64,000 nucleotides of DNA from a candidate division WS1 bacterium (GTDB taxonomy: Bacteria > Armatimonadota > Zipacnadia > Zipacnadales > UBA5352): contig PXBW01000306.1 in the NCBI GenBank assembly GCA_003566775.1, positions 1,359 through 65,358 on the forward strand. The letters are read 5' to 3'. Both the position numbers and the translations under genes were made by a program. The notes under the pieces are model-generated. The model was not told the DNA's origin. It worked only from the letters and a program-made list of their open reading frames with translations, and did not search any database. Of the stretch, positions 12,168 through 53,878 are shown piece after piece (within the stretch, counting starts at the first letter, position 1; every line of letters starts with the position of its first letter).

Positions 12168-12202
12168 CAGATCGCAGGTTAGAAGCAGAGGAGTGCACCT
12201 CA

Positions 12203-12610: not shown

Positions 12611-12683
12611 CAGCGAGCACTCGCCAGCGATCCGCTTGAGACTCGCCCGCTGAAGCCAAACCGATAGAGGGGAGGCGGAAGCG

Positions 12684-14420: not shown

Positions 14421-14459
14421 GTTCGCGCACAAGTCAGTTGAGGAGGGAAGGCACAAGTG

Positions 14460-14810: not shown

Positions 14811-14975
14811 GTGTCGTCTCGAATCGCCGATGCACTTCGTCGCCCTGACGCAGGATGCGCAGGGACTCACGGAGAAGGCAGCAGAGTTGCTTTCAGTGCG
14901 CAGTTTTTGCCCACCAGGCCGCGCGCGGAAGGTTGAGATGACTCGCGCACCGCAGGCGCACCCGGAGGTTCCGCA

Positions 14976-30440: not shown

Positions 30441-31406
30441 ATGACCGGGCGAGGATCTTATGTCAAACTGGTGGTTATTGCGCTGGTGGCGTCCGCCATC
30501 TCCGGATGCGGTGAACGGTATCAGGTCCCCGAGGGCATGACACTGCACGAGGCTGCCAGGCAGGGCGACACACGGGCCATTGAGGCGTTCCTCGACGAGG
30601 GGGCCGACATAAACGAGCGGGGCGCGGGGTACCTGACGCCGCTGCAGGTCGCCGTCGGGGAGGGTTACACCGAGGCCGCGGTGCTGCTGCTGGAGCAGGG
30701 GGCCGACGTCAACGCGCGGGGTGCGTACGACCTCACCCCGCTGCACATCGCCGCCGGGAAAGGCCACAGCAAGGTCTGCGCGCTGCTGCTTGAGCACGGG
30801 GCCGACGTCAACGCGCCTAACGAGGACGGTAATGCGCCTCTGCACGGCGCCGCCATGTTCGGCCATACGGAGACCTGCGCGCTGCTGCTGGAGTGGTGGG
30901 CCGACGTCGACGCGCGGGGCGGGTACGGCGTCACGCCGCTGCACGGCGCCGCCATGGACGGCCAAACCGAGATCGCGGCGCTGCTACTGGAAGGCGGAGC
31001 CGACGTCAACTTGCGGGACGAGGACGGCAATACGCCGCTGCACCTCGCCGCAGCAGCAGGCCACCCCGAGATCGCAGCGCTACTGCTGGACCGGGGCGCC
31101 GACGTCAACGCGCGGGACAAGGGCGTCATGGCGCCTCTGCACTTCGCCGCTTTCAACGGGCACACCGAGATCTGTGTGCTTCTGCTGGAGTGGGGGGCTG
31201 ACATCGACGCGCGGGAGGAGGCCGAATGGACGCCGCTGCACTGGGGCGCCGTGGACGGCCAAACCGAGACCTGCGCGCTGCTTCTTGGGTATGGCGCCAA
31301 CGTCAACGCACAGAACGTGGCCGGCAATACGCCGCTTTACAAGGCTGCCGACAAAGGTCACACCGAGACCGCGGACTTGCTTCGGGAGCACGGCGGCGTG
31401 GAATGA
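30441..31406 (+). CDS. Ankyrin-repeat lipoprotein (about 9 near-identical ANK repeats)
   Basis: Lipobox ISGCGE. Repeated TPLH.AA..GH.E...LLLE.GADVNAR units. Confidence 0.8.
   Translation: MTGRGSYVKLVVIALVASAISGCGERYQVPEGMTLHEAARQGDTRAIEAFLDEGADINERGAGYLTPLQVAVGEGYTEAAVLLLEQGADVNARGAYDLTPLHIAAGKGHSKVCALLLEHGADVNAPNEDGNAPLHGAAMFGHTETCALLLEWWADVDARGGYGVTPLHGAAMDGQTEIAALLLEGGADVNLRDEDGNTPLHLAAAAGHPEIAALLLDRGADVNARDKGVMAPLHFAAFNGHTEICVLLLEWGADIDAREEAEWTPLHWGAVDGQTETCALLLGYGANVNAQNVAGNTPLYKAADKGHTETADLLREHGGVE
30650..31330 (+). repeat. Tandem 99-bp (33-codon) repeats with high nucleotide identity inside the ankyrin gene
   Basis: The string gggccgacgtcaacgcgcgg and following text recurs with a 99-nt period about seven times, with only sparse substitutions. 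Confidence 0.5.
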
Positions 31407-33668: not shown

Positions 33669-34754
33669 TCACGAGTTCTCCTCAATCCACCTGAGCGTGC
33701 GTTCGAGTTCAGTGCGGTCGGGTGCTGAGGTCTGATAGAAGAGCCTGTCGGGGCGCAGGCGCTCGTGGAACTGCGGCAGTTCATCGAGGGTGCAGTACAC
33801 CATCACGCTCTTACCCGCCTCCTGAATCTCGGCCAGCAGATCGAGCCATTCGATCAGCAGTGGAGCGCCCGCGCCCGGGACCCACTGGATGCAGTCGATG
33901 GCCTCGATTGCCATCAGATCGTCCATATGCACGAGAGCTGTCGGGCCATCCCAGTGGAAGATGCACGCGTCCACGTGTTCGGCCTCTGCCTGGAGGTCGG
34001 GCGTCGCAAAGCGGCGGAAGTGCTCGGGGCCGATCAGCGCCGCGAAATCGCACTGTATCGTGTTGCACTTCCCATCGCAATAGGCGCGAATCCACCCGCC
34101 CCCGGTTCCCGTGCGGTCCATCCTGCCATCTTCGTGTAGCGTGTCATAGATGGTGGCGTAAAGCTCGCGCACCTGGTCATTCGCTCGCTCGATCATCTCA
34201 GTCTGTGTATAGAGATCGACGCACAACTCCGTCGCACCGCGCAGGCTCTCCAGCGCATCGAGATTCGAGTGCAGGTCGAGGTGTGAGACCACCCAGTGCT
34301 CCTCCCCCACCTCCGCGAGGCGGCGGATCAGTTCCCGCATTCGTGTCCAGTAACCATTCTCGGCGATCTGCAGGGGCAGAACATCCTCCCAGTGCTCGAC
34401 GAAGGGCACCGCCCAACTCGTGTTGTCCTCCTGCTCGCGCGAGAACTCGATCTCTGCGCCGAGGAAAGCCGCGAAGGTGTCCGGACCGAAGCCGGGCGAG
34501 AACTGGGGCACCGCGTCCCCGCCCCAGTGGATCGAACGCACGTAGGCGTCGGCAGCGGCCACCACCTCGTCGAGCGGATCGAACAGCATCTGTCGGTAGG
34601 TAGGGCGAGGCGCTGGCTCCACTCCCTCAGCCGGGCAGGTGATGACCACCGGCGGGCGGTCGAGCATCTCCCCCGCCCAGAAAGCCCTCCAGCGCTCCGT
34701 GGCTACCGTAAGGTCCGGCTTCAGTGAGAGCCTGTCGGCCGGCGCGTTGCTCAT
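33669..34754 (-). CDS. Hypothetical protein, possibly uroporphyrinogen-decarboxylase (URO-D)-like fold
   Basis: N-terminus TERWRAFWAGEMLDRPPVV resembles the URO-D/MtaA-family start (ReR..l.ge..DR.Pv). ATG at 34754 with a GGAGAGGTGA RBS. Weak assignment. Confidence 0.35.
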   Translation of the reverse strand: MSNAPADRLSLKPDLTVATERWRAFWAGEMLDRPPVVITCPAEGVEPAPRPTYRQMLFDPLDEVVAAADAYVRSIHWGGDAVPQFSPGFGPDTFAAFLGAEIEFSREQEDNTSWAVPFVEHWEDVLPLQIAENGYWTRMRELIRRLAEVGEEHWVVSHLDLHSNLDALESLRGATELCVDLYTQTEMIERANDQVRELYATIYDTLHEDGRMDRTGTGGGWIRAYCDGKCNTIQCDFAALIGPEHFRRFATPDLQAEAEHVDACIFHWDGPTALVHMDDLMAIEAIDCIQWVPGAGAPLLIEWLDLLAEIQEAGKSVMVYCTLDELPQFHERLRPDRLFYQTSAPDRTELERTLRWIEENS

Positions 34755-35067
34755 GGTCGAATCACCTCTCCGATGTGTTACCTCCGTAGGCGAATTCGAC
34801 ATGGCACGTCTCAATGCCTTCAGATCGAGAAAGCAGAGAGTGTGTATTGCAGGAGGTAATTTCGTGTTCCCGTCAAACTACTGATTGAGTCCCGAGAACA
34901 AGCGTCGGCTTGGGGACGTCAGGCACCACTGATGCACCGCAAATCCGCCGAGATGTAGCTCCAGGCAGTGTGGTCGGCGGCGAATTCAGGACAACGCGGG
35001 AGGTATCGTCGTGGATATTGGTACAACTCATGCCGAGCACAGCTTCGGCAAAGGTGGGGATCGCGAG

Positions 35068-37183: not shown

Positions 37184-37387
37184 CCGCTCCGGATTGAGGT
37201 TCCAGATGGGGCTCGCGGTGAGAATGGATTGTGCGCGATTCGGTCGTGCGAAGACGCATGGATCCACTCAGCCCAGCAAACGAGCATTTCTGATTTGTCC
37301 GTACTGGCGATAGTCCACTTGCTCCCAGATTCGTCAATCACAATAATTGACCGGCGTCGGAGCCCGTGTTATAATTGTCCTCGCAGT

Positions 37388-37463
37388 GGGCCCGTAGCTC
37401 AGAGGTTAGAGCAACCGGCTCATAACCGGTTGGTCGCTGGTTCGATCCCAGCCGGGCCCACCA
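37388..37463 (+). tRNA. tRNA-Met (anticodon CAT); elongator-type, could alternatively be tRNA-Ile2 (LAU)
   Basis: Manual cloverleaf: acceptor GGGCCCG/CGGGCCC, D-stem GCTC/GAGC, anticodon stem ACCGG/CCGGT with loop CTCATAA, variable loop TGGTC, T-arm GCTGG-TTCGATC-CCAGC, discriminator A and an encoded CCA. G1:C72 pairs, so not an initiator tRNA. Confidence 0.85.
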
Positions 37464-37541
37464 CGAAAGGTCTATACCGTCTCGCCGTGCGAGCGGCGTA
37501 TCACAATGAATCGATGCATTGATCACTGAGCCCTAACCCAA

Positions 37542-37577
37542 GCGGGGCGGCTGCGTGCCGCCCCGTATGCCTTTTTC
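37542..37577 (+). terminator. Rho-independent terminator after the tRNA
   Basis: GCGGGGCGGC-tgcgt-GCCGCCCCG stem-loop followed by tatgccTTTTT. Confidence 0.55.
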
Positions 37578-37687
37578 GGAAGACTGTGTCAGTATCAGAC
37601 CTTCGCAGTGGCAGGCGCAGCACTCACTGCGGTCGAATGTCACATCTGAGATCGTGTTTCGAACGACAACAGGGCGGAGATGAACCG

Positions 37688-40600
37688 ATGCTTAGCCCAA
37701 TCGCGGATTACGTCAAGGCGCGCAGAAACGAACTTGGACGCCACGTGCTCTTCGTCGGGCACGCGATCCGCACGTCACCCGATGAGATAACAGTCGAGCG
37801 CCTTCTTCACAATATGGCTATCGACTGGGCCCGGGAGCACGAGATTGAACTACCGGAGGAAGACCCGGAAGAGGCCGCAATGCGGCTGATGGCTGAACGG
37901 ATACCGTCTCACCTTGAGCGCTGTCGCCTTCTCCGGGGGCTACTGGAGGAGCTCAGGCCCAGTGAGGCGCATATTCGTCTTGCTCGCATGATCTCCGACG
38001 GGTACTTCCCCGCGATCTTCACGACCGACCCCACGAATCTGCTCCAGCGCGCTCTGAACAGTCAGCACATGGAGCCGGAAAGTGACTACCATCTGCTGGT
38101 TGCCGGCGTCGATGACCCCGAGGAGATCGAGCTTGCCATCTCCGGCTCGACGCGTGTGGTCGTAGTCAAACTGGCCGGATCGATGACTGGTGACTTCCTC
38201 CCGCTCGCTCAGAGCGAAGTCGACGCGGCGATAGACGCCGTCGGCTCGGTGATCGAGCAGGCTTTTGGCACCCTTGCCCTGTTCGTGGCGTATACGGAGC
38301 GTGACCGTGCTCTCATCTCTCATCTGCCGGAGGACGGCGATCGTGCCTTCTGGATCAACCGCATCATCCCGATGGATGACGAGGACCTGTTCCAGGAACT
38401 GAAGATGGAGAGCCCCGACAGTGTTGAATATCACCGCCTGCAGCCGAAGGTGACGCGGATGCTGGAAAAGCGAGCCTCTGCTCGCCATCTTCTCTGCCGT
38501 GAACAGGGAGAGCCTAACGCATTCTTCAGCGGACTTGAGGATCGGGTCAGCCGCCACGACCGCTCCACCGGGAGGATGCGTAAGTCCGGCCCCACCCTCA
38601 GCGTGCTCACGGGAGGCCCCTACCGCTTTCTTGCGCCCTATCGCATGGAGGACGCCGAGCTATTCTATGGTCGAGAACAGGAGACCGAAGATGTCATCGA
38701 GATGATTCGCGAGAATCGCCTCAGTGTGCTCTTCGGAGGAATGGGGCGCGGCAAGACCTCTCTGCTGTGTGCCGGCGTCATGGCACGTATGCTCGACGAG
38801 GCGGAGGAGGCCGACACCGATCACGGAACCTTCTGGTTGCCCGTTTACGTGCGCTGTGGCATGGATCCACTCGAGAACACACGTGAGGCGATCGTGGAGG
38901 CTCTAAGCGAAATCGACATTGAAGACGTCGATCCTGAAGTATCGTTGCCCGAGTTGATAGAAGAGAGCATTGAGCGTTCCAAGCGTCCGATAGTGCTGCT
39001 CATCGATCAGTTCGAAGAATACTTCGTCCGTACAGGAGATCGGCTCCAGCAGCAGTTCGCCGCAGAACTCGCAGACGCGCTGGACAAATGTGACCGGTTG
39101 CGCGTGCTCATCAGTATTCGGGAGGACTACCTCGGTAAGCTCTACGAACTGCACGAACAGTTCCCCACGATTCTGCACAACGTATATCGGCTGCGCAAGC
39201 TCAGCTCGCGCCAGGCCAAGGTTGCGGCCATGAAGCCGGGAGCAAACTTCCATTTGACCGTTGAGGAGGAACTCGTGGACCGCGTCCTCGAAGATCTCTG
39301 CGACGATGATGGATGTGAGCCGACCGAACTTCAAATCGTGATGGATAGACTCTATCAGACGTTGTCCCCGCACCGGCATGTGATGGCTGCCACGGCATAC
39401 GAGCAGCTTGACGGCGCGGACAGGATCCTGCGTAACTATCTCGAACACGCCCTCCAACAGCTTCCGCCCTGGGAAAGGCGTCTCGTCCGGAACATACTCA
39501 AGCAGATGGTCCAATCCTCGGAGTTGAAGGCCATTCGCCCCGTGGAACGTCTTGCTTCAGAGGTCGGTCAATCCGAAGAAACCGTCGAGCGCATTCTCGC
39601 CCGTCTCGAGGATCTACGCCTCGTGCGTCGCGTCGGCAAGCCCGATCAGCATGAGTACGAGGTGGTTCACGAGTACGTGGCGCACAAGATCGATGAGTGG
39701 ATGACCGAGCGTCAGATCGAGGTCAAAGATGTTCAGGACCTGATCACCCGCGAATTGGGCAACTATCAGAAGTTCGGCCTGCGCATGCAGGAGAGTGCGC
39801 TCAGAGTAATCGAGAGCCATCGCAATGAGCTTACGATCTCGCCGGAAGAGATGGCCCTGATTATCCGCAGTGCGGTACATCACGAGGTTGATGTTGGATA
39901 CTGGCTGCGACGCGCCGATGAACTCGAGGATCTGCTCGAGCCCACCCTCAAGGACATGCTTCGTGCGGAAGAGGCGCATGTGCGCCGCTCCGCCCTTCGT
40001 GCACTGGGCCCTCACGTTTCGAGGTCCTATCTGCCCGAACTGGTCGATCTACTTGATGACGAACAGGAGGACGTCCGCACGCAGGCCGAGGAGTATCTGC
40101 GAGGGCTCGATCGCCAACTTGTCCACATGCTTGGACGCGGCAGTAAAGAAGAGAGGCATCTTGCCGCGTACGCTCTGGGAAGGATCGAGAGCCGTCGAGC
40201 GCTGCGACCTCTGACGCAGGCCCTGCGCGACGACGATGACGAGATGCGGGACGAGATCGCTGAGGCCCTCATGGAGATGGACAGCGATTCGACCACCCGC
40301 ATGCTGCTGCGCCGACTGCGCGAGAGTCCCGAAGCCCCGTGGGCGGTGGCATATGCACTCGGACGCGTGGCACAGGATTCCAGCGCGGTGGACGACATCG
40401 CGCAGGCGCGCCGCAACTCGCCACGTTCGGCCCAGATCACTTTCGCTCTGGCGATGGCTCTCGCCCAGCGCCGCGACTTCGAGGAGGCGCTGGAGTTACT
40501 CGATCAGGCGGAGAAGCTCGCGAGCACCGAGACCGGCCGCAAGAGCATAACGGAGATACGCAACGAGGTACTGGAGCAGCAGGAGCGGGCGAGCCGTTTC

Positions 40601-41653
40601 GAGGATTGGACCACATTTCATGGCAATCCGCGCAGAACCGGATACTCGAGCGAACGTGTTACACCACCCCTGCGAGTTCGCTGGAGATTTCAGACACGTG
40701 GTCCCGTAGTTGGCGGGCCAGCGGTCGGCAGAGGCATGGTGTGCGTCGGATCCAGAGACAGCTACGTGTACGCCCTCGATAGCAGTTCGGGCCATCTTCT
40801 CTGGGAGGTCCACACGGAAGACCGCGTTGAATCGACACCCACACTGGCAGGTGACCGCCTCTATCTCACCTCCCGCGATGGACACATCTACTGTCTCGCC
40901 ACCTCCGACGGCAGTGAGCACTGGTCCTACGATACAGGGGCGGCCAGTCGCTCCTCTCCCGCGGTGGCCGATGACGTTGTCTTCGCGGGCAATCAGCGCG
41001 GCAGCCTCATTGCGGTTGACCGAAAGAGCGGCACCCTCCGCTGGCAGGCGACTGCCCGGGATGAGATCTCAGCAGCCCCCACCATCGCTGATGATCTGGT
41101 GATAGTCGGCTCATGGGACGGTACCGTGCACGCATTCTCTCGCGAGGATGGTGAACAGGCCTGGGTGCGCGAGGTGGAGGAGCCGGTAGCAGCCGCAGGG
41201 GCATTCGCCGATGGGATCTACTACGTCGGCACCGATGCCCTCAGTATCCTCGCCCTCGATATCACCACCGGAGAGACAGTCTGGGAGACCGATATTGAGG
41301 ATCGAGTCCGTTGCTGCCCCGCCCTCACCGAAGACCTGGTTGTCTTCGGAGCAATGGATGGCCGCGTGTACGCAGTCGGCCGGGACGAAGGCCAGCTTGT
41401 GTGGAGCTTTGAGACCGAGGACGAGATTCTCGCATCCCCCGCTATCACCAATGACGTCGTCTATGTTGGCTCCAAAGACGGGGCGCTGTACACTCTATCT
41501 GTTGAGGATGGCCGCGAGATATGGCGGTACTCCACCTCTTACGCGGTGTACTCCTCTCCCGCCACCGCCGAGCAGATGGTGATCCTGGGGATGCAGTACT
41601 ACGATGTTGTTGCATTCGTCGGACAGGAGTTCAAACCGGGAGCACTGACATGA
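37688..41653 (+). CDS. Large multidomain protein: SIR2_2-like N-domain, P-loop NTPase (STAND/NACHT-like), HEAT-like repeats and a C-terminal PQQ-type beta-propeller; candidate immune/signalling STAND protein
   Basis: SIR2_2 blocks in order: HVLFVGHAIRTS, AIFTTDPTNLLQRAL, VVVKLAGSMTGDF, LFVAYTERDRALI. NTPase: FYGREQE...VLFGGMGRGKTSLL (Walker A), LLIDQFEE (Walker B), RVLISIRED. HEAT-like: HVRRSALRALG...EDVRTQAEEYL...ALRPLTQALRDDDDEMRDEIAEAL. Eight YxxD/G-xxG-xxxW propeller blades (VYALDSSSGHLLWE, IYCLATSDGSEHWS, LIAVDRKSGTLRWQ, VHAFSREDGEQAW, ILALDITTGETVWE, VYAVGRDEGQLVWS, LYTLSVEDGREIWR). No signal peptide. The start could be at 37586, 37637 or 37688; the last sits just before the SIR2 block. 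Confidence 0.7.
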   Translation: MLSPIADYVKARRNELGRHVLFVGHAIRTSPDEITVERLLHNMAIDWAREHEIELPEEDPEEAAMRLMAERIPSHLERCRLLRGLLEELRPSEAHIRLARMISDGYFPAIFTTDPTNLLQRALNSQHMEPESDYHLLVAGVDDPEEIELAISGSTRVVVVKLAGSMTGDFLPLAQSEVDAAIDAVGSVIEQAFGTLALFVAYTERDRALISHLPEDGDRAFWINRIIPMDDEDLFQELKMESPDSVEYHRLQPKVTRMLEKRASARHLLCREQGEPNAFFSGLEDRVSRHDRSTGRMRKSGPTLSVLTGGPYRFLAPYRMEDAELFYGREQETEDVIEMIRENRLSVLFGGMGRGKTSLLCAGVMARMLDEAEEADTDHGTFWLPVYVRCGMDPLENTREAIVEALSEIDIEDVDPEVSLPELIEESIERSKRPIVLLIDQFEEYFVRTGDRLQQQFAAELADALDKCDRLRVLISIREDYLGKLYELHEQFPTILHNVYRLRKLSSRQAKVAAMKPGANFHLTVEEELVDRVLEDLCDDDGCEPTELQIVMDRLYQTLSPHRHVMAATAYEQLDGADRILRNYLEHALQQLPPWERRLVRNILKQMVQSSELKAIRPVERLASEVGQSEETVERILARLEDLRLVRRVGKPDQHEYEVVHEYVAHKIDEWMTERQIEVKDVQDLITRELGNYQKFGLRMQESALRVIESHRNELTISPEEMALIIRSAVHHEVDVGYWLRRADELEDLLEPTLKDMLRAEEAHVRRSALRALGPHVSRSYLPELVDLLDDEQEDVRTQAEEYLRGLDRQLVHMLGRGSKEERHLAAYALGRIESRRALRPLTQALRDDDDEMRDEIAEALMEMDSDSTTRMLLRRLRESPEAPWAVAYALGRVAQDSSAVDDIAQARRNSPRSAQITFALAMALAQRRDFEEALELLDQAEKLASTETGRKSITEIRNEVLEQQERASRFEDWTTFHGNPRRTGYSSERVTPPLRVRWRFQTRGPVVGGPAVGRGMVCVGSRDSYVYALDSSSGHLLWEVHTEDRVESTPTLAGDRLYLTSRDGHIYCLATSDGSEHWSYDTGAASRSSPAVADDVVFAGNQRGSLIAVDRKSGTLRWQATARDEISAAPTIADDLVIVGSWDGTVHAFSREDGEQAWVREVEEPVAAAGAFADGIYYVGTDALSILALDITTGETVWETDIEDRVRCCPALTEDLVVFGAMDGRVYAVGRDEGQLVWSFETEDEILASPAITNDVVYVGSKDGALYTLSVEDGREIWRYSTSYAVYSSPATAEQMVILGMQYYDVVAFVGQEFKPGALT

Positions 41654-42543
41654 GGCGATTCCTCGTATTGGTGGTCGGCATCGCGACCGTGGCCTCAGCC
41701 GGCTGCGGGACAGTCGATCACATGCGTCGAGACTTCGTGGCCCCGCGCTACATTCAGCAGGCGGAGGCTAAGGTCCATCGCCTGCCGCGCGATCCCGGAG
41801 CGGCGGAGCGGGCGGCGGACCGTGCGCTGCGGCTCATGCCCGATGCACCAGAGCTTCAACTGAGGGCAGCACGCGTGTACGCGTCGGCTCGGGCGTGGGA
41901 GAAGGCCATCCGGCTGTTCGAAGCACAGGCGAACCTGGCCACCCTCGATCAGTTGACCTACGCACTGTGCCTGCTTGAAGCCGAACGGCGGGAACTTGGA
42001 GCGGAGATCTGCCTCCGTGTGATCAACCGGGCACACCGGGACCATCAGCAGGGCAGAATAGGCAGATTGCAGTGGGCACTACTGCTAAACAACGCCGGAT
42101 ACATCCTTGCAGATGCCGACATCGAGGTTGATCGCGCTTATGCGGCGGTCACGGAAGCAGTGGAGGCATTTCCGCTACAGGCCGCGTTCGTTGATAGCCG
42201 CGGCTGGGCCTTATATCGTCAGGGCAAGCTCAACGATGCAGCCTTCTACCTCGAAAGAGCCCGCCGACACGCGGAACGGGAGGATCCGGAAGTGCTGTAT
42301 CACCTCGGAGTCGTTTACGGTCGCCTCGAACGTTATGGAGAGGCCTACGACGTACTTACCAGAGCGCAAGAACTCGATCCGGACTGGGAGCCGATAACCG
42401 AGGAATTGCGGCGCCTGGGACGGATACTTCCTCCTCCGGCTCTCTGTAATCGCCACAGGCGGTCACCGTCAATGCCAATTCTCAGGGCTGCGCGGCAGAT
42501 GGACGGGGCCCTGACCTCTATGATCGGAGAGATTCAGCGATGA
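41650..42543 (+). CDS. TPR-repeat lipoprotein
   Basis: Signal peptide plus lipobox VASAGCG, then TPR-like helical repeats. Its ATG overlaps the stop of the upstream giant gene (ATGA). Confidence 0.55.
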   Translation: MRRFLVLVVGIATVASAGCGTVDHMRRDFVAPRYIQQAEAKVHRLPRDPGAAERAADRALRLMPDAPELQLRAARVYASARAWEKAIRLFEAQANLATLDQLTYALCLLEAERRELGAEICLRVINRAHRDHQQGRIGRLQWALLLNNAGYILADADIEVDRAYAAVTEAVEAFPLQAAFVDSRGWALYRQGKLNDAAFYLERARRHAEREDPEVLYHLGVVYGRLERYGEAYDVLTRAQELDPDWEPITEELRRLGRILPPPALCNRHRRSPSMPILRAARQMDGALTSMIGEIQR

Positions 42544-43724
42544 GGATAGCCCGCAGAATGGAAGCCATCAGCCCTTCTGCCACGATTGGAATGAAGGTCA
42601 AGGCGGATGAACTCAGAGCACAGGGCAGAGAGGTACTGTCTTTCGCCCTCGGCGAACCTGACTTCCCAACTCCGGACAACGTGATCGAGGCGGGAAAACG
42701 TGCTCTCGACGAGGGGGAAACGAAGTACACGGCCGCGACCGGGACCCTTGCGTTGAGACAGGCAATCGCCACCGCGACAGAACGCGACCTCGGTGTGCAG
42801 TATGATCCGGGACAAGTAGTCGTGTCCAACGGCGCCAAGCATTCACTATGCAACCTGGCGATGACAATGGTGCAGCCGGGTGACGAGATAATTGTGTTCT
42901 CACCATTCTGGGTTACCTATCCAGATCAACTCAGCCTCTGCGGCGGTCGACCGGTGGTGGTCGAGACTACTGACAAGGACGACTTCCAACCCGACCTCGA
43001 CCGAATACGCGCCGCTATCACTCCCTGGACCACCACGATCATGATCAATAGTCCCTCGAACCCCACCGGGGCGGTGTACCAGCGGGAGATTATCGAGGGC
43101 ATTGCGGAGATTGCGTTAGAACACGACCTGCTAATCGTTTCCGACGAGATCTACAAGCAGATCCGCTTTGATGGCAACGGGCACCTCAGCCCTGCCCAGC
43201 TTTGTGATGAGGTGAAAGAGCGCACCGTGATCGTGGATGGTGTTGCCAAGAGCTACGCAATGACCGGATGGCGTATCGGCTGGATCTGCGCGCCGCCGGA
43301 GATTGCCTCAGCCTGCGGCAGTCTGCAGGGCCAGAGCACGTCATGTCCGAACGCAATCGCTCAGGCAGCCACGATCGAGGCGCTCAACGGGCCTCAGGAT
43401 TCCGTCCAGACGATGCGCGAGCAGTTCGAGCGACGCCGTGACTTCGTCGTCGGGCGTCTCGCGGAGATACCCGAGGTCAGCTGCGCCACACCGCGTGGCG
43501 CCTTCTACGCATTCCCGAACGTCTCCGCGTACTACGGCCGCAAGTTCGGAGAGCACACCATCAACGGCTCCCTTGACATGGCTGAGTATCTGCTGACGGA
43601 GGGCCTTATCAGCCTCGTGCCGGGGGAAGCGTTCGGTGCGGATGACTACATTCGCCTGAGCTTCGCCGCGAGCATGGAGGAGATCGACGAGGGTCTCATG
43701 CGTTTCGCGCAGGCTCTCGCCTGA
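42540..43724 (+). CDS. aspC: Aspartate/aromatic aminotransferase (PLP-dependent, class I)
   Basis: [16 protein letters not shown] and [18 protein letters not shown] (PLP-Lys region), with full-length AspC-like similarity. ATGA overlap with the upstream gene. Confidence 0.85.
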
Positions 43725-43780
43725 ACTACGTACGAGGCTGAGAAATCAGTACATCATCACGAACGATTTTCACTCAACGC

Positions 43781-43803
43781 GAGCGGGGCGTGAGTCCCCG
43801 CTC
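43781..43803 (+). terminator. GC-rich hairpin downstream of aspC (possible terminator without U-tract)
   Basis: GAGCGGGG-cgtgagt-CCCCGCTC. Confidence 0.25.
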
Positions 43804-43827
43804 GGTTACCTGTCAGGAGGAGAGAAT

Positions 43828-44907
43828 GTGTACACAATCACGCTGATTCCGGGCGACGGAACCGGACCCGAGATCGTCGATGCGATGCGCCGCTGCGTGG
43901 AAGCCACCGGTGTCGACATTACCTGGGACGTACAACACGCGGGTATGACCGTGCTCGAAGAAGAGGGAACTCCGCTTCCCGACAGCGTCCTCGACTCGAT
44001 TCGAGAGAACAGGGTCGCCATCAAAGGACCGATCACAACGCCCGTGGGAGGCGGTTTCCGCAGCGTAAACGTAGCTCTGCGCAAACTGCTGGACCTCTAC
44101 GCCTGCCTGCGACCGAGCAAGTTCTACGAAGGGGTCAAGTCGCGCTATCCCGAGGCCGATCTCGTGGTCGTGCGGGAGAACACCGAGGATGTTTACGCGG
44201 GTATCGAATTCGAGCGCGGCACAGACGAGTGCGCCGAAATCATGGAGCAAATCGAGCGCCTCACAGGCGAGTCGATTTTGGACGACTCGGGCATCTCGAT
44301 AAAGCCGATTTCGGAGAGCGCTTCCGCCCGGATCGTACGCTTCGCGTTCGACTACGCAATCGAGAACGGCCGCACCAAGGTCACAGCGGTGCATAAGGCC
44401 AACATTCAGAAGTTTTCGGACGGACTGTTCCTCGAGACCGCACGGCGCGTCGCCGAGGAGTACGCCGACAGCGGTATCGAGTTCGAGGATCGCATCGTGG
44501 ACAACATGGCGATGCAACTGGTGCAAAAGCCGGACTGGTACGATGTGCTGGTGATGCCAAATCTGTATGGGGACGTGATCAGCGACCTCGCGTGCGGACT
44601 GATCGGGGGCCTGGGCGTCGCCCCGGGTGCCAATATCGGCGAGGAGATCGCGGTGTTCGAACCGACACACGGAAGCGCCCCGAAGTACGCGGGGCAGAAC
44701 CGGGTTAACCCGACTGCGACTATTCTCTCGGCAGTGATGATGTTGGATCATCTCAAGGAGCACGAAGCCGCCGATCGTCTCGAGAATGCCATCGCAGAGG
44801 TAATCGCGGAGGGTGACCGCGTCACCTACGATCTAAAGCCTGATCGCGATGATCCCAGCGCGGTGGGGACCTCCGAGATGGCGGATGCGATCATAGAGCG
44901 GCTCTGA
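43828..44907 (+). CDS. Isocitrate/isopropylmalate dehydrogenase family protein (likely NAD-dependent isocitrate dehydrogenase)
   Basis: [14 protein letters not shown]-terminus and [19 protein letters not shown] metal/substrate motif. GTG start with an AGGAGG RBS 7 nt upstream. Malate dehydrogenase lies 1 kb downstream. Confidence 0.7.
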
Positions 44908-45010
44908 ACGCTGCGGGGATATGAGGGCCGGTGTCACCGGAGCGGCGCTGCCTGGCCGACCGCCTCGGTCTGATATCTGCTCATCCTGCCGACAGGATGA
45001 ACGTCCTGCC

Positions 45011-45038
45011 GGGGGCGGGACAGGGCTGTCCGCCCCCC
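45011..45038. terminator. Hairpin between convergent genes (possible bidirectional terminator)
   Basis: GGGGCGGGACAG-ggc-TGTCCGCCCCC lies between the IDH stop (44907) and the minus-strand metalloprotease stop (45046). Confidence 0.3.
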
Positions 45039-45045
45039 AGCACAC

Positions 45046-45822
45046 CTACCGTCTTCTCCTCAGCGGCCAGGTCACAACCACCGCCGGAATACCCACCAGC
45101 AGGAGGGCCATTATTCCGAAGCTGAGCACCGAAGAGGCCCATGACATCGCCCAGCCTACATACACGTCGACCGCCGTGCGATAGGGCGCGAAGCGATCCA
45201 ACTCGAAGACCACCAGGATGCCGCCGATAGTCAACGTCGTCGCCACGGCCAATGCGGGCAGACTCGCCTTCAGATCTATGTCACTTGGCGCGAGTTCGAC
45301 GCCAATACTGAGCGCGAGGAGAAGAAACACCCATGTCCTTAGAGCATAATAGTCGAGGCTCAGCAGTAGATCAATCAGCCGCCGCCAGTCCGCGGTGATC
45401 GCAAGCTCTCGCGGGTCCTCCGGCACGCCGAGCGCCCATGAGATCAGCCATAGGGCGAGCGCGCCGGTGAACAGCGGCATGAGCGCCGCAAGGCCGGTCG
45501 CCAGCCATTGGACGGCCCACGGCGCCCATCTTCTCCCGGGCCTGCAGTAGCCACGCCCATTCGGGTCGATGAACGCGGGCACGAGCCTGCTTACTCCGTA
45601 TCCGCCGATGAGATAACCAAGCGCATGGCTCATCTCATGGAGGATGTTGCCCGGAGCACGCAGAATATCGACCACCAGCCTGCGGGCAGTGGATCTCCCC
45701 CACGCGGCCCGCAGCACCCACTCAAAGAGCAGGCGCGAGATAGCGTAGAGAAGAGCTGCCTCGCCCGCAACGAGGATCACGCGGCGTATGAGTTCGAATG
45801 CCGAGGGCATAACGCGACGCAT
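45046..45822 (-). CDS. Putative integral-membrane zinc metalloprotease (HExxH motif HEMSH)
   Basis: At least six TM segments with NILHEMSHALGY between them. Family unassigned; M50/DUF3267-like. Confidence 0.4.
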   Translation of the reverse strand: MRRVMPSAFELIRRVILVAGEAALLYAISRLLFEWVLRAAWGRSTARRLVVDILRAPGNILHEMSHALGYLIGGYGVSRLVPAFIDPNGRGYCRPGRRWAPWAVQWLATGLAALMPLFTGALALWLISWALGVPEDPRELAITADWRRLIDLLLSLDYYALRTWVFLLLALSIGVELAPSDIDLKASLPALAVATTLTIGGILVVFELDRFAPYRTAVDVYVGWAMSWASSVLSFGIMALLLVGIPAVVVTWPLRRRR

Positions 45823-45891
45823 TATAACACATGCGCGTCCCGTTGATTACCATCGGGGCCGTCTGCAGTCTAAGGATTTCGGGAGCGAACA

Positions 45892-46818
45892 ATGAAGGTA
45901 ACCGTAGTCGGAGCCGGACATGTTGGGGCAACCACCGCTCAGCGCATCGCGGAGCGCAGTATCGCGGACGTCTATCTTGTGGACATTGTGGAGGGGCTCG
46001 CCACTGGTAAGGCTCTGGACCTTGCAGAGGCCGCGCCTCTTGTCGGCCACAGCAGCGTCATCACCGGTGGCACCGAGTATGATCCCGCAGAAGGATCGGA
46101 TGTCGTGGTAGTCACAGCAGGCGTCGCCCGCAAGCCTGGAATGTCGCGCGACGATCTACTTACTACGAACGGCAGGATAGTATCCGGCATCATCGAGGAG
46201 ATCGCAAGAGTAGCGCCGAACGCGATCATCATCATGGTCACGAATCCGCTGGATGTGACCACACACATTGCGATGGAGGTCTCCGGTCATTCTCGCGAGC
46301 GAGTCATGGGAATGGCGGGCGCGCTTGACACGGCGCGTTTCCGCGCCTTCATCGGAATGGAACTCGGCTGCTCGCCGGTGGATGTGCAGGCGATGGTGCT
46401 GGGCGGACACGGCGACTCGATGGTCCCGCTCGCAAGCTCCGCGACCGTTGGCGGCGTGCCGATCACGCAATTGATCGATCCGGAGCGCCTCGAAGAGATC
46501 GTCCAGCGTACCCGTGACGGCGGTGCGGAAATCGTCGGACTTCTGAAGACGGGGAGCGCGTTCTACGCTCCCTCAGCGGGCGTGACAGACATGGTGGCGT
46601 CGATCCTGCGCGATGAGGGCCGAATCATGCCGGCCTCGGTCTTCCTGCAGGGAGAATACGGTATCGAAGACACCTTCGTCGGGGTCCCGGTGCGTCTCGG
46701 AAGAGGCGGCGTTGAGCATATCATCGAGGTCAAGCTCGCTGAGGCTGAGCTCACCGCCCTGCATGCCTCAGCCGCTCATGTGCGTGAGACCGTGGACACG
46801 TGGGAGAGGTTGTCCTGA
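45892..46818 (+). CDS. mdh: Malate dehydrogenase (LDH-like, NAD-dependent)
   Basis: MKVTVVGAGHVGATTA, VVVTAGVARKPGMSRDDLL and IIMVTNPLD are canonical LDH/MDH-family blocks. GGGAGC RBS. Confidence 0.9.
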   Translation: MKVTVVGAGHVGATTAQRIAERSIADVYLVDIVEGLATGKALDLAEAAPLVGHSSVITGGTEYDPAEGSDVVVVTAGVARKPGMSRDDLLTTNGRIVSGIIEEIARVAPNAIIIMVTNPLDVTTHIAMEVSGHSRERVMGMAGALDTARFRAFIGMELGCSPVDVQAMVLGGHGDSMVPLASSATVGGVPITQLIDPERLEEIVQRTRDGGAEIVGLLKTGSAFYAPSAGVTDMVASILRDEGRIMPASVFLQGEYGIEDTFVGVPVRLGRGGVEHIIEVKLAEAELTALHASAAHVRETVDTWERLS

Positions 46819-49317: not shown

Positions 49318-50316
49318 TCATTCAGATGCTGCGTCGCCCCGTGAATGCCGCTCCCTCAGCACGATCACTATCAGCGCCAATGCGAAGAGCAACACAGAGG
49401 CCGCCTGTCCAATGGTGAACACCGGCATGATCTGCAATACCTCTGCCGTGGCTTCCCGCCGGAATGCCTCTACCACGTAGCGCAGAACGGAATAGAGCGC
49501 AACGAAACCGAGAAAGCGGTTGAACGGCTTCTTCAGATAGGGTGTCAGCAGGAGCAGGAGAGGCAATACAAAGACCAACGCTCCCGCTGCGGCGTAGAAC
49601 TGCGTCGGATGGACAGAACTCTCGGGCATTCTGCCTCCGACCTGGGGGAATGTCACCGCCCACGGGTGAGTGGAGGGGATTCCGTAGCAGCAACCATTGA
49701 GATAGCATCCCACCCGTGCGACGGCGTAACCCACTGCCAGACCCGGAGCCGCGAGGTCGAAGCAGCGAGCGAAGCTAACCCCGATCAGAGGAGCAGCGAT
49801 GGCGATCGTGAGCAATCCCCCTGCGAGCCCTCCATGCCAGGACATTCCGCCCTGCCAGAGGTCCATGACGGCAGGCACTTCGGCTGCGTAGTCACTCCAG
49901 TTGAGCGCGACGAACCCAAGGCGCCCTCCGAGTATTCCACCCGCGAATCCCAATAGAGCGACCTGAAGCACCTGCAGGCGAGTGAAGTCATAGCGGTCAC
50001 GGTCGAGGTACATACATGTGAGGGCCGCCGCGAACGCGCCGAGCATCATCACCCCGTAGGATCTCACCTGGAGTGGGCCGATTCGGTTCACCAGCAGATA
50101 GACGATAATTGTTGGGATCGCCGCCTGCACCAGTATCTCAACTGCCAGCTTCCATCGTGAGGACCGGCGTCTTTCTTTGCTACGGCGCTCCAGCCAGGTC
50201 CAGACAGCGACAATTGCAAGGAAAACGAAGAATATCAATGGTAGATGAATCGGCCGCCAGGGCCCAAACCTGAGCAGCGTCGGATGCAAAGCGCGCTCAC
50301 ACTCCTCTACTATCAC
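49318..50316 (-). CDS. lgt: Prolipoprotein diacylglyceryl transferase
   Basis: LWQGGMSWHGGLAGGLL and RVGCYLNGCCYG...HPWAVTFPQ match Lgt signature regions (E. coli WEGGMSFHGGLIG; RIGNFINGELWGR...PWAMVFP). Extra N-terminal TM extension. Confidence 0.8.
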   Translation of the reverse strand: MIVEECERALHPTLLRFGPWRPIHLPLIFFVFLAIVAVWTWLERRSKERRRSSRWKLAVEILVQAAIPTIIVYLLVNRIGPLQVRSYGVMMLGAFAAALTCMYLDRDRYDFTRLQVLQVALLGFAGGILGGRLGFVALNWSDYAAEVPAVMDLWQGGMSWHGGLAGGLLTIAIAAPLIGVSFARCFDLAAPGLAVGYAVARVGCYLNGCCYGIPSTHPWAVTFPQVGGRMPESSVHPTQFYAAAGALVFVLPLLLLLTPYLKKPFNRFLGFVALYSVLRYVVEAFRREATAEVLQIMPVFTIGQAASVLLFALALIVIVLRERHSRGDAASE

Positions 50317-50548
50317 TCACAACGGGATCTCGCACAGGATCATTCACACATGAAAGCGAACCCTGCGGCTGGTTGAAGACTTCGCGGATCTGCCTGCGGT
50401 CTGAACGGCCACTGGACTCTTTTCTCACTTGATGCGCTCATGTGAGAGGGCCGTCTTAGCAACGACGGCCCTCGTAGGTAGATCTTCAAACAGACTGTTC
50501 CGACGCGTCGGTCGTTTGGTTTGTGGTGAGTACCGGCATTCTGACAGC

Positions 50549-50800
50549 TCAGTCAACCGCCCTTACGTCACTTACCTCCGGGACCTCCTGCCGCAGCACG
50601 CGTCCTATGCCCATGGTGAGTGTCATCTGCGACATCGGGCAGCCCCTGCATGCGCCCTGAAGACGAACCTCAACCACGTTGTCTTCGGTAATATCCACCA
50701 GCTCAACTCCACCACCATCTGCTTCAAGCGATGGCCGGACCTTCTCCAGCGCCGCCTCGACCTGCTCGCGTAACTCTTCGATATTCCTGTCCTCAGTCAT
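50549..50800 (-). CDS. NifU-like (Nfu) Fe-S cluster scaffold/carrier domain protein
   Basis: ADGGGVELVDI...ACRGCPMSQMTL is the Nfu C-terminal domain signature. Confidence 0.8.
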   Translation of the reverse strand: MTEDRNIEELREQVEAALEKVRPSLEADGGGVELVDITEDNVVEVRLQGACRGCPMSQMTLTMGIGRVLRQEVPEVSDVRAVD

Positions 50801-51656
50801 TGTCAGCCTCCTCGACTATTGTCTCCGTCGCATCGTCGTCCGAATCTATCTCTTGCGAGGTGAGTCCGCTGATTCTCCAGCCTCCGGGCTCCCGCGCGAA
50901 CTCGAAATGATGCATCTCCATCTCCCCGTCGGCATATCCGACAATGACTTCCGCCCAGCCGGTCTCGCCGCCGGCTTTCACATGGCCATCGAGTATTCTG
51001 ATACCGGAAACCGGCCGCTGGCGCTGTCGGCGCTGAATCACCCTGAACGCATCTTCACCCAGTTCGTCTTTGAGTTGCTGCTGCTTCTCCTCGCAGAACA
51101 GATCAAAATAGGCCGGACTGGTGACTTCAGCCTCTTCATCCGGAGGGAGCAGATCGTACCAGCGTTCGATGACCCGCCATATCTTCCCGAGGTGAGCGTC
51201 GGGATGAGGCGGGATCGCCAGAACTGTCTCACGTCCCTCCTGTGGCAGACTGAGCCGCATCTTCCGTCCATCCGACTCGACCCAGACACCGAAGCTCTCC
51301 GCGACGAATCGCAGTGGAACGAATGCCCTGCCGTTGATCAACTGGGGCGCTACGTGGAGCCGATAGTCTGCCTCCACAATCCTTGCATTCGTGCTGCCGA
51401 TCCAGAGCTCAACCTGAGGTGTCGTGGCGGCCTCAGATCGATAGGCACGAATGTGTCCGTCCTCGTAGCTCACCCTCGCGCCTAACCACTCGAAGATCGG
51501 ACGCAGCGGAACCAGCGCTCGCCCTTCCAGCGTCACCGGCTGGACGTCAAACAGAAGCTCTCGCGCTGCATATGCTTCGGACCTCAGCCCGAGCGTCAAC
51601 GCGATTATCAGCACCGCCACGACGCAGCCCCTGAGTCTGTTCATCGTCTTGTTCAC
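50793..51656 (-). CDS. Secreted protein with copper-amine-oxidase N-terminal-like (stalk) domains
   Basis: Signal peptide. Two blocks of type PV..EGR.LVPLR.I.E.LGA.V (Cu_amine_oxidN1-like). Overlaps nfu by 8 nt. Confidence 0.55.
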   Translation of the reverse strand: MNKTMNRLRGCVVAVLIIALTLGLRSEAYAARELLFDVQPVTLEGRALVPLRPIFEWLGARVSYEDGHIRAYRSEAATTPQVELWIGSTNARIVEADYRLHVAPQLINGRAFVPLRFVAESFGVWVESDGRKMRLSLPQEGRETVLAIPPHPDAHLGKIWRVIERWYDLLPPDEEAEVTSPAYFDLFCEEKQQQLKDELGEDAFRVIQRRQRQRPVSGIRILDGHVKAGGETGWAEVIVGYADGEMEMHHFEFAREPGGWRISGLTSQEIDSDDDATETIVEEADND

Positions 51657-51695
51657 TCCCGTAACGCCTTATCCTGTCCCTGCATGGGCCGTGTA

Positions 51696-52667: not shown

Positions 52668-52795
52668 ACATTACACCCTCCATCTGTGTACTCTCATATT
52701 GTACTATTCGCCGGATGCAGGGAGCCGACCTTCATATTGGGTCGAAGCAGATCATCCAATCAGGCCGGTCGCCACGTTCGACTCCAGGGGACACT

Positions 52796-53869: not shown

Positions 53870-53878
53870 AGGAGGCCT

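Follow-up and report, generated by a model that had tools for sequence, protein, structure and literature searches.

The gene analyzed here occupies positions 37688..41653 of a 64,000-nucleotide window, the whole stretch of Armatimonadota DNA under study, and lies, like all features described below, on the forward (+) strand. It runs from an ATG start to a TGA stop within a frame that is open without interruption over 37586-41653. A GGAG motif precedes the ATG at 37688 by ~9 nt, and the corresponding Met1 is invariant in all orthologues, giving a product of 1,321 aa. The homologue search retrieved a protein identical to this product (P0001) and ~90 orthologues. The product is a tripartite STAND protein, composed of a domain in the effector position, an NTPase, and a repeat sensor. 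A preliminary description had proposed this reading frame and domain order, and both were confirmed, with a caveat concerning the SIR2 domain. It had also noted the absence of a signal peptide, and direct reading of the N-terminus likewise found no signal-peptide-like hydrophobic stretch.

The central module (38618..39727, residues 311-680) is an nSTAND1 P-loop NTPase with helical and winged-helix subdomains, matched by Pfam PF20703 at E=2.3e-53 (182.6 bits against a cut-off of 27.1 bits, 353/379 model positions covered). The motifs quoted earlier for this region are all found in the sequence: Walker A, FYGRE...GGMGRGKTS, at 38735-38761 (residues 350-358); Walker B, LLIDQFEE, at 38993-39019 (residues 437-444); and ISIRED (residues 475-480), containing the R478-E-D sensor at 39119-39127. 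G350, G355, K356, S358, D440, R478, and E479 are invariant across 84 orthologues, and T357 is Thr in 81 of the 84; E444, the GxP-like P517, and H661 of the winged helix are invariant in a 16-sequence alignment. Weak HTH matches at residues 613-659 (CasR/Csa3, HTH_Crp_2) mark the winged helix. The proposed STAND NTPase is borne out by the PF20703 match and the invariant motifs, and, judging by its residues, the P-loop switch module is intact, winged helix included.

Downstream of the NTPase, residues ~700-970 (39785..40597) form an alpha-solenoid arm of 17 helices, in which PBS-type HEAT repeats are followed by TPR-like helices. The arm was matched by Pfam HEAT_2 (E=3.7e-18), HEAT_PBS, and TPR_16, and by profiles of alphaRep proteins. 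An eight-blade PQQ/BamB-type beta-propeller follows (40670..41623, residues ~995-1312; Pfam PQQ_2, E=1.4e-58). In the AF2 model of residues 700-1321 (pLDDT 91), 17 helices precede 32 strands, and the propeller strands recur with a strict 40-residue period, equivalent to eight blades. Its best structural matches in Foldseek were the 8-blade Cake8 design (TMt 0.94), BamB, and YxaL. The HEAT_2 and PQQ_2 matches and the model uphold the earlier reading of HEAT helices leading into an eight-blade PQQ/BamB-type propeller. Column conservation was 0.57 in the propeller and 0.52 in the HEAT region, with 0.61 in the NTPase; at the sequence level, the sensor region is not hypervariable. The suggestion that a PQQ-type propeller would be an undescribed sensor on a STAND protein agrees with the literature: no description of such a sensor was found, the 2026 survey of STAND proteins (PMC12803255) contains no instance of 'PQQ', and no indexed paper joining 'STAND NTPase', 'PQQ', and 'SIR2' was found. 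Among the homologues retrieved, the combination of a PQQ_2 (PF13360) propeller with nSTAND1 was confined to this orthologue family.

The N-terminus (37688..38587, residues 1-~300) was identified by profile-profile comparison and AF2/Foldseek as a degenerate SIR2-fold domain. It had been described as 'SIR2_2-like'; the fold is supported, but Pfam SIR2_2 gave no match even at E<=10. Alignment with SIR2_2-positive relatives by hhalign reached 92.7% probability (E=4.4e-7), and the AF2 model (pLDDT 83) matched ThsA, DSR2, KomC, SPARSA-SIR2, and EfAvs5 in Foldseek (E 1e-8 to 1e-5), its closest structural matches all being defence NADases. The window protein has G24-H25-A26 at the GAGxS loop, with D114 where the catalytic Asn would be and A163 where the His would be. 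Neither catalytic residue was seen at its position in any of 84 full-length orthologues, the His position being occupied by G (42), A (34), S (3), C (2), T (2), or V (1) and the Asn position mostly by E (48), D (24), or S (7). Divergent family members of ~1,300 aa all lack both residues as well. Among ~150 related SIR2 domains, His is kept in 112 and Asn in 116. The nearest non-family relatives retain GAGAS/TTNFD/KLHGDL. The closest proteins in which both Asn and His are preserved have the architectures SIR2_2-nSTAND3-HEAT and SIR2_2-NACHT; the His is also missing from several SIR2_2-nSTAND1 relatives whose sensor is an FGE-sulfatase domain. The pocket is remodelled, with TTNFD turned into T-x-E/D-P-D and KLHG into KC[G/A]G; where an aromatic residue would follow the Asn, there is Pro115, almost invariant in the 84 orthologues.

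In EfAvs5, the single substitution N141A abolishes defence (PMC11897194). PDB entries of mutated characterised homologues include DSR2 H171A and KomC H146N, counted among mutations that kill function. With catalytic Asn and His gone in 84/84 orthologues and in the divergent members, the SIR2 NADase effector logic originally put forward for this protein fails. The domain lacks the canonical SIR2 NAD-cleavage chemistry, and its output is therefore most likely other than NAD+ depletion. Mean column conservation is 0.63 in the N-domain versus 0.61 in the NTPase. Its 27 invariant positions include several Arg, Lys, Glu, or Asp, and polar residues such as R13, R78, E93, Y106, Y134, R156, K161, E177, R205, D231, and H249 are invariant in the family. 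On sequence grounds the N-domain is a pseudo-sirtuin still under constraint and, many polar residues being family-invariant, it may hold a non-canonical active site.

Upstream of the STAND gene, ARAGORN called a tRNA-Met with a CAT anticodon (37388..37463), which is not an initiator because it has G1:C72. A candidate sigma-70-like promoter, TTGACC-17-TATAAT with TG, precedes it by consensus match (37347..37375; 11/12 hexamer positions, with a mean of 0.2 sites in shuffles of the region). Between the tRNA and STAND genes lies an intrinsic-terminator-like hairpin with a T-run (37542..37576, -24.6 kcal/mol; 10 bp stem, 9 GC pairs). The window and the orthologous locus L010 have it, but most loci do not, so it falls outside the conserved unit. 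Directly downstream, a 297-aa exported TPR lipoprotein is encoded at 41650..42543, its ATG overlapping the STAND TGA (ATGA) and its signal peptide, MRRFLVLVVGIATVASAG, ending before C. A TPR homologue immediately follows the STAND gene in 30/31 loci with enough downstream sequence and has a lipobox or signal-anchor helix wherever the N-terminus was read. Since this conserved partner is exported, it is unlikely to contact the cytoplasmic STAND protein directly. The start of a class I/II, aspartate-aminotransferase-like gene (42540..43724; Pfam E=1e-66, below the cut-offs of the NCBIfam aspartate aminotransferase models) overlaps the TPR gene's stop, and this gene is syntenic across the orthologous loci. 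An isocitrate-dehydrogenase-like gene (43828..44907) and a malate dehydrogenase gene (45892..46818; TIGR01763, 418.9 bits versus a cut-off of 351.85) are frequently syntenic.

The order tRNA-Met(CAT), STAND, TPR lipoprotein, aminotransferase, often with isocitrate and malate dehydrogenase, is near-invariant, and dnaG-rpoD is sometimes found upstream of the STAND gene. At 33/36 orthologous loci, the STAND gene is preceded by the same tRNA at a distance of 66-224 bp. Its adjacency, previously taken as a sign of a defence locus, is better described as conserved synteny than as an integration hotspot; the tRNA 3' end has no att-like repeat, and there is no shift in GC content. No defence genes were found near the orthologues, and no neighbour matches PADLOC. 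The surroundings of the orthologues are conserved and of housekeeping type, which runs counter to a defence-island association. One divergent family member (L089) has a type II restriction-modification pair 2.8 kb away.

The STAND gene was detected in ~29 species-representative genomes, all Armatimonadota and many labelled class Zipacnadia, with one match per assembly; all carriers are MAGs, so that 'single copy' and 'always present' should not be taken strictly. Orthologues are 1,305-1,334 aa long and share 35-74% identity. No copy of the family was found on plasmids, phages, or viral contigs, the best plasmid matches to residues 973-1314 being haloarchaeal and Streptomyces kinase or PQQ-repeat proteins. 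This distribution suggests a vertically inherited, non-mobile gene.

Among known systems, Avs5 (AVAST type 5; EfAvs5, PDB 9jap) shares the succession of SIR2-fold N-domain, STAND NTPase, and C-terminal repeat sensor, and Foldseek aligns the N-domain model with 9jap_A (E=8e-6). In contrast to EfAvs5, which requires its SIR2 active site, the Armatimonadota protein has lost Asn and His, carries an nSTAND1 NTPase unmatched by PADLOC Avs models and a HEAT plus PQQ propeller sensor, and is encoded by a vertically inherited gene in a housekeeping context, not in a defence island. The nSTAND1 clade was first described in counter-invader/conflict systems (PMC8195603; Kaur, Iyer, Burroughs and Aravind 2021), and relatives join nSTAND1 to SIR2_2, TIR, kinase, HEAT, WD40, or FGE-sulfatase domains; described members are conflict proteins of multicellular bacteria, whereas here the gene is fixed and single-copy in Armatimonadota. 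The N-domain shares its fold with ThsA, DSR2, KomC, and SPARSA SIR2-APAZ (Foldseek E 1e-8 to 1e-6, TM ~0.5-0.6), and the motif scaffolds align (GAG-loop G, hhTTxxD, K-h-x-G-D). It differs from these defence SIR2 NADases in its replaced catalytic residues, Pro115, and unmatched Pfam SIR2_2, and in its fusion to a STAND NTPase without a SLOG, pAgo, or DSR2-type C-terminal domain. AfsK-type Ser/Thr kinases, which use cytoplasmic PQQ propellers in signalling, BamB, and YxaL have a similar eight-blade propeller, and the NCBIfam AfsK model aligns to residues 1064-1275 (E=1.7e-31). However, the Armatimonadota propeller is borne by a STAND ATPase and not by a kinase or a secreted lipoprotein, and the protein misses all equivalog cut-offs.

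An Avs/bNACHT-like antiviral role, in which the PQQ/HEAT module senses a phage protein and the oligomerised SIR2 domains deplete NAD+ in abortive infection, would fit the effector, NTPase, and sensor layout, the resemblance to ThsA, DSR2, KomC, and EfAvs5, and the conflict-system background of nSTAND1 (PMC8195603). It is nevertheless very unlikely, given a catalytic pair missing from every family member when loss of the Asn alone disables EfAvs5 (PMC11897194), no SIR2_2 match in Pfam, a fixed, housekeeping-like locus over ~29 species with neighbours unmatched by PADLOC, and no trace of the family on plasmids, phages, or viral contigs. Nor does any Avs, bNACHT, or Thoeris model in PADLOC match the protein; of the Avs/bNACHT-type interpretation, the tripartite layout and nSTAND1 membership stand, and the NADase effector and defence locus do not. 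A lineage-fixed immune STAND protein with another output deserves more weight, although we consider it unlikely. Here the dead SIR2 domain would only hold filaments or oligomers together, or would bring in an effector encoded elsewhere, and assembly itself might cause cell arrest. Such a structural role has precedent in EfAvs5, whose SIR2 domain takes part in dimer and filament contacts (PMC11897194), and defence and non-defence STAND clades are intermingled in the 2026 survey (PMC12803255). The loss of His in several relatives with FGE-sulfatase, a recognised defence-type sensor, and the restriction-modification pair near L089 point the same way. Against it, the locus offers no linked conserved effector candidate, only the exported TPR protein and metabolic enzymes. 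Defence genes turn over rapidly and are not typically inherited vertically across a class, at a single locus and with uniform length, as this gene is; the sensor region is also no more variable than the remaining protein.

Database names suggest two further identities. JGI and NCBI call orthologues 'outer membrane protein assembly factor BamB' or 'PQQ-binding-like beta-propeller repeat protein', the propeller resembles BamB, and the TPR lipoprotein is superficially like BamD. An outer-membrane assembly factor or PQQ-dependent enzyme is, however, extremely improbable: ~970 cytoplasmic-type residues with an intact P-loop precede the propeller, and the TPR partner matches no BamD model. Failed equivalog thresholds (TIGR03300 BamB, 192 versus 285; PQQ alcohol dehydrogenase, 98.5 versus 480) and the lack of a signal peptide or lipobox effectively refute this identity. 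The name of one orthologue at JGI includes 'predicted transcriptional regulator', which, with the weak HTH matches, would suit a MalT/AfsR-like STAND regulator acting through its winged helix. We regard this as highly improbable, as the HTH segment falls within the span of the nSTAND1 model (311-680), where it is the standard STAND winged-helix subdomain, and Pfam identified no LuxR- or SARP-type DNA-binding domain in addition to it.

The explanation we favour, and consider somewhat probable, is a vertically inherited single-copy nSTAND1 ATPase switch, not an NADase, domesticated for signalling in the Armatimonadota lineage. By analogy with other STAND proteins, it would rest as an ADP-bound autoinhibited monomer until the propeller/HEAT module engages a ligand, which is probably a protein. 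This would allow ADP-to-ATP exchange and oligomerisation, clustering the N-domains, which would most likely act through induced proximity, as scaffolds, or by binding an anionic ligand, NAD-related or otherwise; both ligand and output are what we infer throughout. The family would have arisen from SIR2-STAND-HEAT conflict-type proteins and later been domesticated for a lineage-specific cellular signalling role, presumably co-expressed with the exported TPR lipoprotein beside central-metabolism genes. The gene is characteristic of an Armatimonadota lineage including class Zipacnadia (GTDB UBA5377), and its dead SIR2 domain and fixed housekeeping-type locus argue for a domesticated relative of immune receptors rather than a mobile anti-phage NADase.

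The STAND gene lies on the + strand within a single uninterrupted reading frame (37586-41653), in which the ATG at 37688, with GGAG about 9 nt upstream, aligns with a Met1 that is invariant in all orthologues. The coordinates 37688-41653 assigned in the preliminary description were exact, the product is 1,321 aa long, and every sequence motif quoted there was found in the protein. A Pfam search placed nSTAND1 (PF20703) at residues 311-680 (E=2.3e-53), followed by HEAT_2, HEAT_PBS and HEAT_EZ at about 750-885, TPR-like repeats at about 899-945 and PQQ_2/Beta-prop_ACSF4 at about 970-1300. The proposed effector–NTPase–sensor layout was recovered as a SIR2-fold domain, nSTAND1, and HEAT repeats with a propeller, and the N-terminus, MLSPIADYVKARRNELG, carries no signal peptide, as had also been noted.

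To resolve the C-terminal sensor, residues 700-1321 were modeled with AlphaFold2 from 16 orthologues, yielding 17 helices followed by 32 strands (pLDDT 91); the strict 40-residue period over these strands corresponds to eight four-stranded blades. In a Foldseek search, the closest structure was the designed eight-blade propeller Cake8 (TMt 0.94, rmsd 1.2 Å), with BamB and YxaL next, and the sequence profile also matched alphaRep (PBS-HEAT) proteins and PQQ propellers among the matches listed (60 of 147). A BamB identity was rejected on scores of 192.3 against a cut-off of 285.2 (TIGR03300) and 147 against 423 (NF008351) and on the missing export signal, as was a PQQ-dependent dehydrogenase (TIGR03075, 98.5 against 480). 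The database names ‘BamB’ and ‘PQQ-binding-like repeat protein’ are wrong or uninformative for the family. A 2026 survey of defence STAND proteins (PMC12803255) describes sensors of the TPR-like, WD40 and FGE-sulfatase types, with no mention of PQQ; together with our finding no indexed paper that combines a STAND NTPase, PQQ and SIR2, this agrees with the earlier suggestion that a PQQ-propeller sensor is undescribed.

The central domain scored 182.6 bits against PF20703, for which the gathering cut-off is 27.1 bits, and displays all nSTAND1 features tested; the NACHT, nSTAND3 and AAA_16 matches are weak echoes of nSTAND1, with NACHT borderline at 27.2 versus 26.7 bits. Across 84 orthologues, G350, G355, K356 and S358 of Walker A, D440 of Walker B and R478-E479 are invariant, and T357 and E444 nearly so (T in 81/84 and E in 79/84, respectively). 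P517 and the winged-helix H661, which we take to be the STAND GxP and the MHD-like element, are invariant in a 16-sequence alignment. With Walker A, the Walker B Asp/Glu and the sensor Arg intact, the P-loop STAND NTPase reported initially is upheld, and judged by these residues it looks functional. A full-length profile compared with PDB sequences gave no STAND NTPase among the matches listed (60 of 147), so the NTPase assignment rests on Pfam.

Identification of the N-terminal domain required profile and structure methods, since residues 1-321 matched no Pfam family, SIR2_2 (PF13289) included, even at E<=10, and a single-sequence PDB search returned nothing useful. An N-domain profile run against PDB gave SIR2 matches that were all sub-threshold (E 0.6-1.3), a lead rather than evidence, and in PADLOC a pAgo-associated SIR2 model matched weakly (E=1.3e-6). 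By hhalign, 12 orthologous N-domains aligned over 175 columns with the SIR2_2-positive N-domains of six nSTAND1 relatives (92.7% probability, E=4.4e-7). The AF2 model of the domain (pLDDT 83, pTM 0.83) retrieved ThsA by Foldseek at E=1.1e-8, as well as SPARSA-SIR2, DSR2, KomC and EfAvs5, itself a SIR2-STAND protein. An HMM search run exhaustively over 1.84 billion representative proteins returned 1,106 N-domain relatives at E<=0.001 (261 at E<=1e-10), and the canonical SIR2 signature is present in the non-family members among the 150 best matches. Aligned to the family profile, these outside relatives read GAGAS ... TTN[FY]D ... KLHGDL, with the His in 112 and the Asn in 116 of about 150. By prediction from sequence and model, the N-domain is therefore a diverged SIR2 domain on three independent lines: hhalign, the structure model and the HMM relatives.

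At the same motifs the window protein reads VGHAIR, TTDPTN and KLAGS. The catalytic Asn is replaced by D114 (mostly E48/D24/S7 among the 84 orthologues, never Asn) and the catalytic His by A163 (G42/A34/S3/C2/T2/V1, never His), and every family member of about 1,300 aa lacks both. The aromatic residue following the Asn has become a near-invariant Pro115, and K161 and G164, which flank the former His site, are invariant in the 84 orthologues. Characterised homologues show the importance of these sites: in EfAvs5, defence is abolished by N141A (PMC11897194), and deposited structures include the variants DSR2 H171A and KomC H146N. The lost Asn/His pair is the decisive evidence on the domain, which, as predicted from these positions, keeps the SIR2 fold without being a SIR2 enzyme. 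Of the initial ‘SIR2_2-like’ label, the fold stands, by Foldseek against defence SIR2 NADases and by hhalign against SIR2_2-positive relatives, but the Pfam SIR2_2 match and both catalytic residues are missing. Mean column conservation is 0.63 in the N-domain versus 0.61 in the NTPase, and 27 N-domain positions, several of them charged, are invariant, which argues for a constrained pseudo-enzyme rather than a decaying remnant. Residues invariant in the family include R13, R78, E93, Y106, Y134, R156, K161, E177, R205, D231, H249 and R262.

The His is also missing from nSTAND1 relatives that do match SIR2_2 and that carry FGE-sulfatase, HEAT or kinase domains: P0091, P0095, P0097, P0098 and P0099 have R, A, V, Y or F at the position, and solely P0093 among these relatives keeps the His. 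SIR2 inactivation may therefore recur among nSTAND1 proteins and not be unique to the family.

To assess the distribution of the family, a word-indexed protein search was used, which recovered about 90 orthologues; 84 exceed 1,290 aa. Full-length orthologues span 1,305-1,334 aa and are 35-74% identical, and all source names given for them are Armatimonadota. When a single genome was scanned for each GTDB species, about 29 assemblies had a full-length copy, one each, under the labels Armatimonadota, Armatimonadia or Candidatus Zipacnadia, with one WS1 and two ‘bacterium’; outside this Armatimonadota-type group, the scan matched the NTPase core only. Zipacnadia corresponds to GTDB class UBA5377 (PMC10290634). 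No full-length relative was found on 72,556 plasmids, 50,697 phages or IMG/VR contigs.

In the window, the gene order is 2-hydroxyacid dehydrogenase, AhpC/TSA, DsbA-like, tRNA, STAND, TPR lipoprotein, aminotransferase, isocitrate dehydrogenase, malate dehydrogenase, APH-family kinase and Lgt. A tRNA with a CAT anticodon lies 66-224 bp upstream of the STAND gene in 33/36 orthologous loci; of the three without it, two have less than 200 bp of upstream sequence and one (L033) is divergent and matched only in part. A TPR gene homologue follows immediately in 30 of the 31 loci with enough sequence, then a class I/II aminotransferase and, often, isocitrate and malate dehydrogenase genes across the 36 loci. 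The corresponding window stretch, 42540-46818, holds aspartate-aminotransferase-like, isocitrate-dehydrogenase-like and malate dehydrogenase genes, a conserved central-metabolism cluster linked in many orthologous loci. Upstream genes differ among loci (dnaG-rpoD, thioredoxin-like, hisG) and are all housekeeping; six loci from five distinct orthologues likewise have metabolic or housekeeping neighbours.

The association with defence islands that the preliminary description asked to check was not observed. PADLOC matched none of 10 ORFs tested in the window, namely the TPR partner and nine neighbours lying within about 14 kb, a search of the window for an att repeat of the tRNA 3' end returned the tRNA itself only, and GC content runs through the locus with no step or anomaly. 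Relative to L001, an orthologous locus, identity is 42% for the STAND protein, 37% for the TPR protein, 51% for the aminotransferase and 78% for isocitrate dehydrogenase, a relative divergence that fits orthology; at distances of this order synonymous sites are probably saturated. Inheritance of the STAND gene is shown to be vertical, syntenic and non-mobile; it behaves like a core gene.

Two elements mark the tRNA region of the window (37347-37576): a promoter-like site close to consensus (TTGACC-17-TATAAT with TG) and a hairpin resembling a strong terminator (-24.6 kcal/mol). The G1:C72 pair argues against an initiator tRNA, with elongator Met or tRNA-Ile2 as candidates. A conserved tRNA–terminator–gene arrangement was rejected, the strong terminator being present only in the window and in the orthologous locus L010. 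Most orthologous loci lack the hairpin and have only 66-224 nt between the tRNA and the start of the STAND gene, so co-transcription with the tRNA is plausible there and less so in the window genome.

The start of the TPR partner gene (41650-42543, + strand) overlaps the STAND stop codon as ATGA, with its ATG at 41650. Its product begins with MRRFLVLVVGIATVASAG followed directly by Cys, a lipoprotein signal peptide, and continues into TPR repeats; a BamD-like identity was rejected, as only generic TPR models matched. A lipobox heuristic was positive in only about half of the orthologous partner genes, and manual inspection of the remainder revealed, in most, signal-anchor helices or an unrecognised lipobox; the partner is accordingly generalised as exported or membrane-anchored rather than as a lipoprotein. 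Where readable, partner N-termini consist of a lipobox or signal-anchor helix with a conserved MRRDF(V/L)ALRY motif after it, a start that places the partner outside the cytoplasm.

Two more divergent members, P0130 and P0133, have the four-domain architecture and dead SIR2 of the family and no tRNA. In them the next gene encodes not a TPR lipoprotein but a PQQ propeller protein of 439-457 aa with a signal peptide (12053-13372 in locus L088 and 12152-13525 in L089). In both clades, a cytoplasmic STAND protein stays paired with an exported repeat protein. Four further divergent members share the nSTAND1–HEAT–PQQ layout in a Pfam scan. L089 also carries a type II restriction-modification pair (RE_SacI and a D12 methyltransferase) on the opposite strand, 1.6-3.8 kb upstream, with dnaN-dnaA nearby.

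The window protein has the layout of Avs5. The reading advanced initially was an antiviral Avs/bNACHT-like STAND protein with a SIR2 NADase effector. In PADLOC at E<=1, neither an Avs nor an NLR-like model matched the protein, which drew only weak pAgo-associated SIR2, HEAT-ARM and HTH matches, so that no described Avs or bNACHT family was matched. With neither a catalytic effector, nor an Avs/bNACHT model match, nor a defence context, an immune NADase is very improbable. Defence and non-defence STAND clades are intermingled (PMC12803255). A role in conflict through an output other than NAD+ cleavage we consider unlikely, if less so than an immune NADase.

The reading we favour, with moderate confidence, is a vertically inherited, non-mobile STAND switch of immune-type origin with a non-immune role, in which the pseudo-sirtuin output would be scaffolding or ligand binding instead of NAD+ cleavage; its anatomy is much more certain than the non-immune role. 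Ligand binding to the propeller/HEAT module would drive nucleotide exchange, after which the protein would oligomerise. An immune-type SIR2-STAND-HEAT ancestor is suggested by the closest relatives that retain both Asn and His, which are SIR2_2-nSTAND3-HEAT and SIR2_2-NACHT proteins. More tentatively, and with the odds leaning against it, we hypothesize a ‘domesticated NLR’ found throughout the class: a SIR2-STAND receptor of immune type, with its sirtuin turned into a pseudo-enzyme and co-opted for a core non-immune function. That function could be the sensing of an NAD-related or other cytosolic metabolite, or the coupling of cytosolic state to the envelope, an idea prompted by the exported repeat protein with which the receptor is invariably predicted to be co-expressed (a TPR lipoprotein in the main clade, a PQQ propeller in the divergent one).

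Several other features of the window were recorded. Two + strand genes encode ankyrin-repeat proteins, at 12684-14420 (578 aa, Ank_2 1e-86) and 30441-31406 (321 aa, Ank_2 2e-96), the second where GC content is locally high (0.664); ankyrin proteins with many repeats are uncommon among free-living bacteria. The GC peak of the window (16-18 kb, 0.698) falls inside a 1,438-aa ORF (14976-19292, + strand) with Laminin_G_3 and PcRGLX-like lyase domains, and an antisense ORF at 14376-17774 (1,132 aa) is probably a GC artefact. A 381-aa ORF at 33669-34814 (- strand) had no Pfam or PADLOC match and overlaps a + strand ORF, so it is uncertain as a real gene. At 50000-54000, GC skew falls to about -0.13 over a run of minus-strand genes that includes a Cu_amine_oxidN1-domain protein and a PfkB kinase, probably a strand effect.

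Together, our results give a clear instance, in an uncultured lineage, of an NLR-like receptor that bears a pseudo-sirtuin and has become fixed as a core gene; the kind of system is not new. Current work on bacterial STAND/NLR-like proteins treats them almost wholly as phage sensors and reads their SIR2 fusions as NAD+-depleting effectors. The family shows that architecture alone can mislead, as a full immune-receptor layout coexists with a degenerate effector and core-gene behaviour, a warning to annotation pipelines that domain composition is insufficient for calling defence systems. If confirmed, it would be a clear bacterial example of a domesticated NLR-like receptor and sirtuin, and the PQQ propeller would join the STAND sensor folds. 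Should the ‘domesticated NLR’ proposal prove true, these proteins would be a bacterial counterpart of the eukaryotic non-immune STAND proteins and the first STAND described with a PQQ-propeller sensor.
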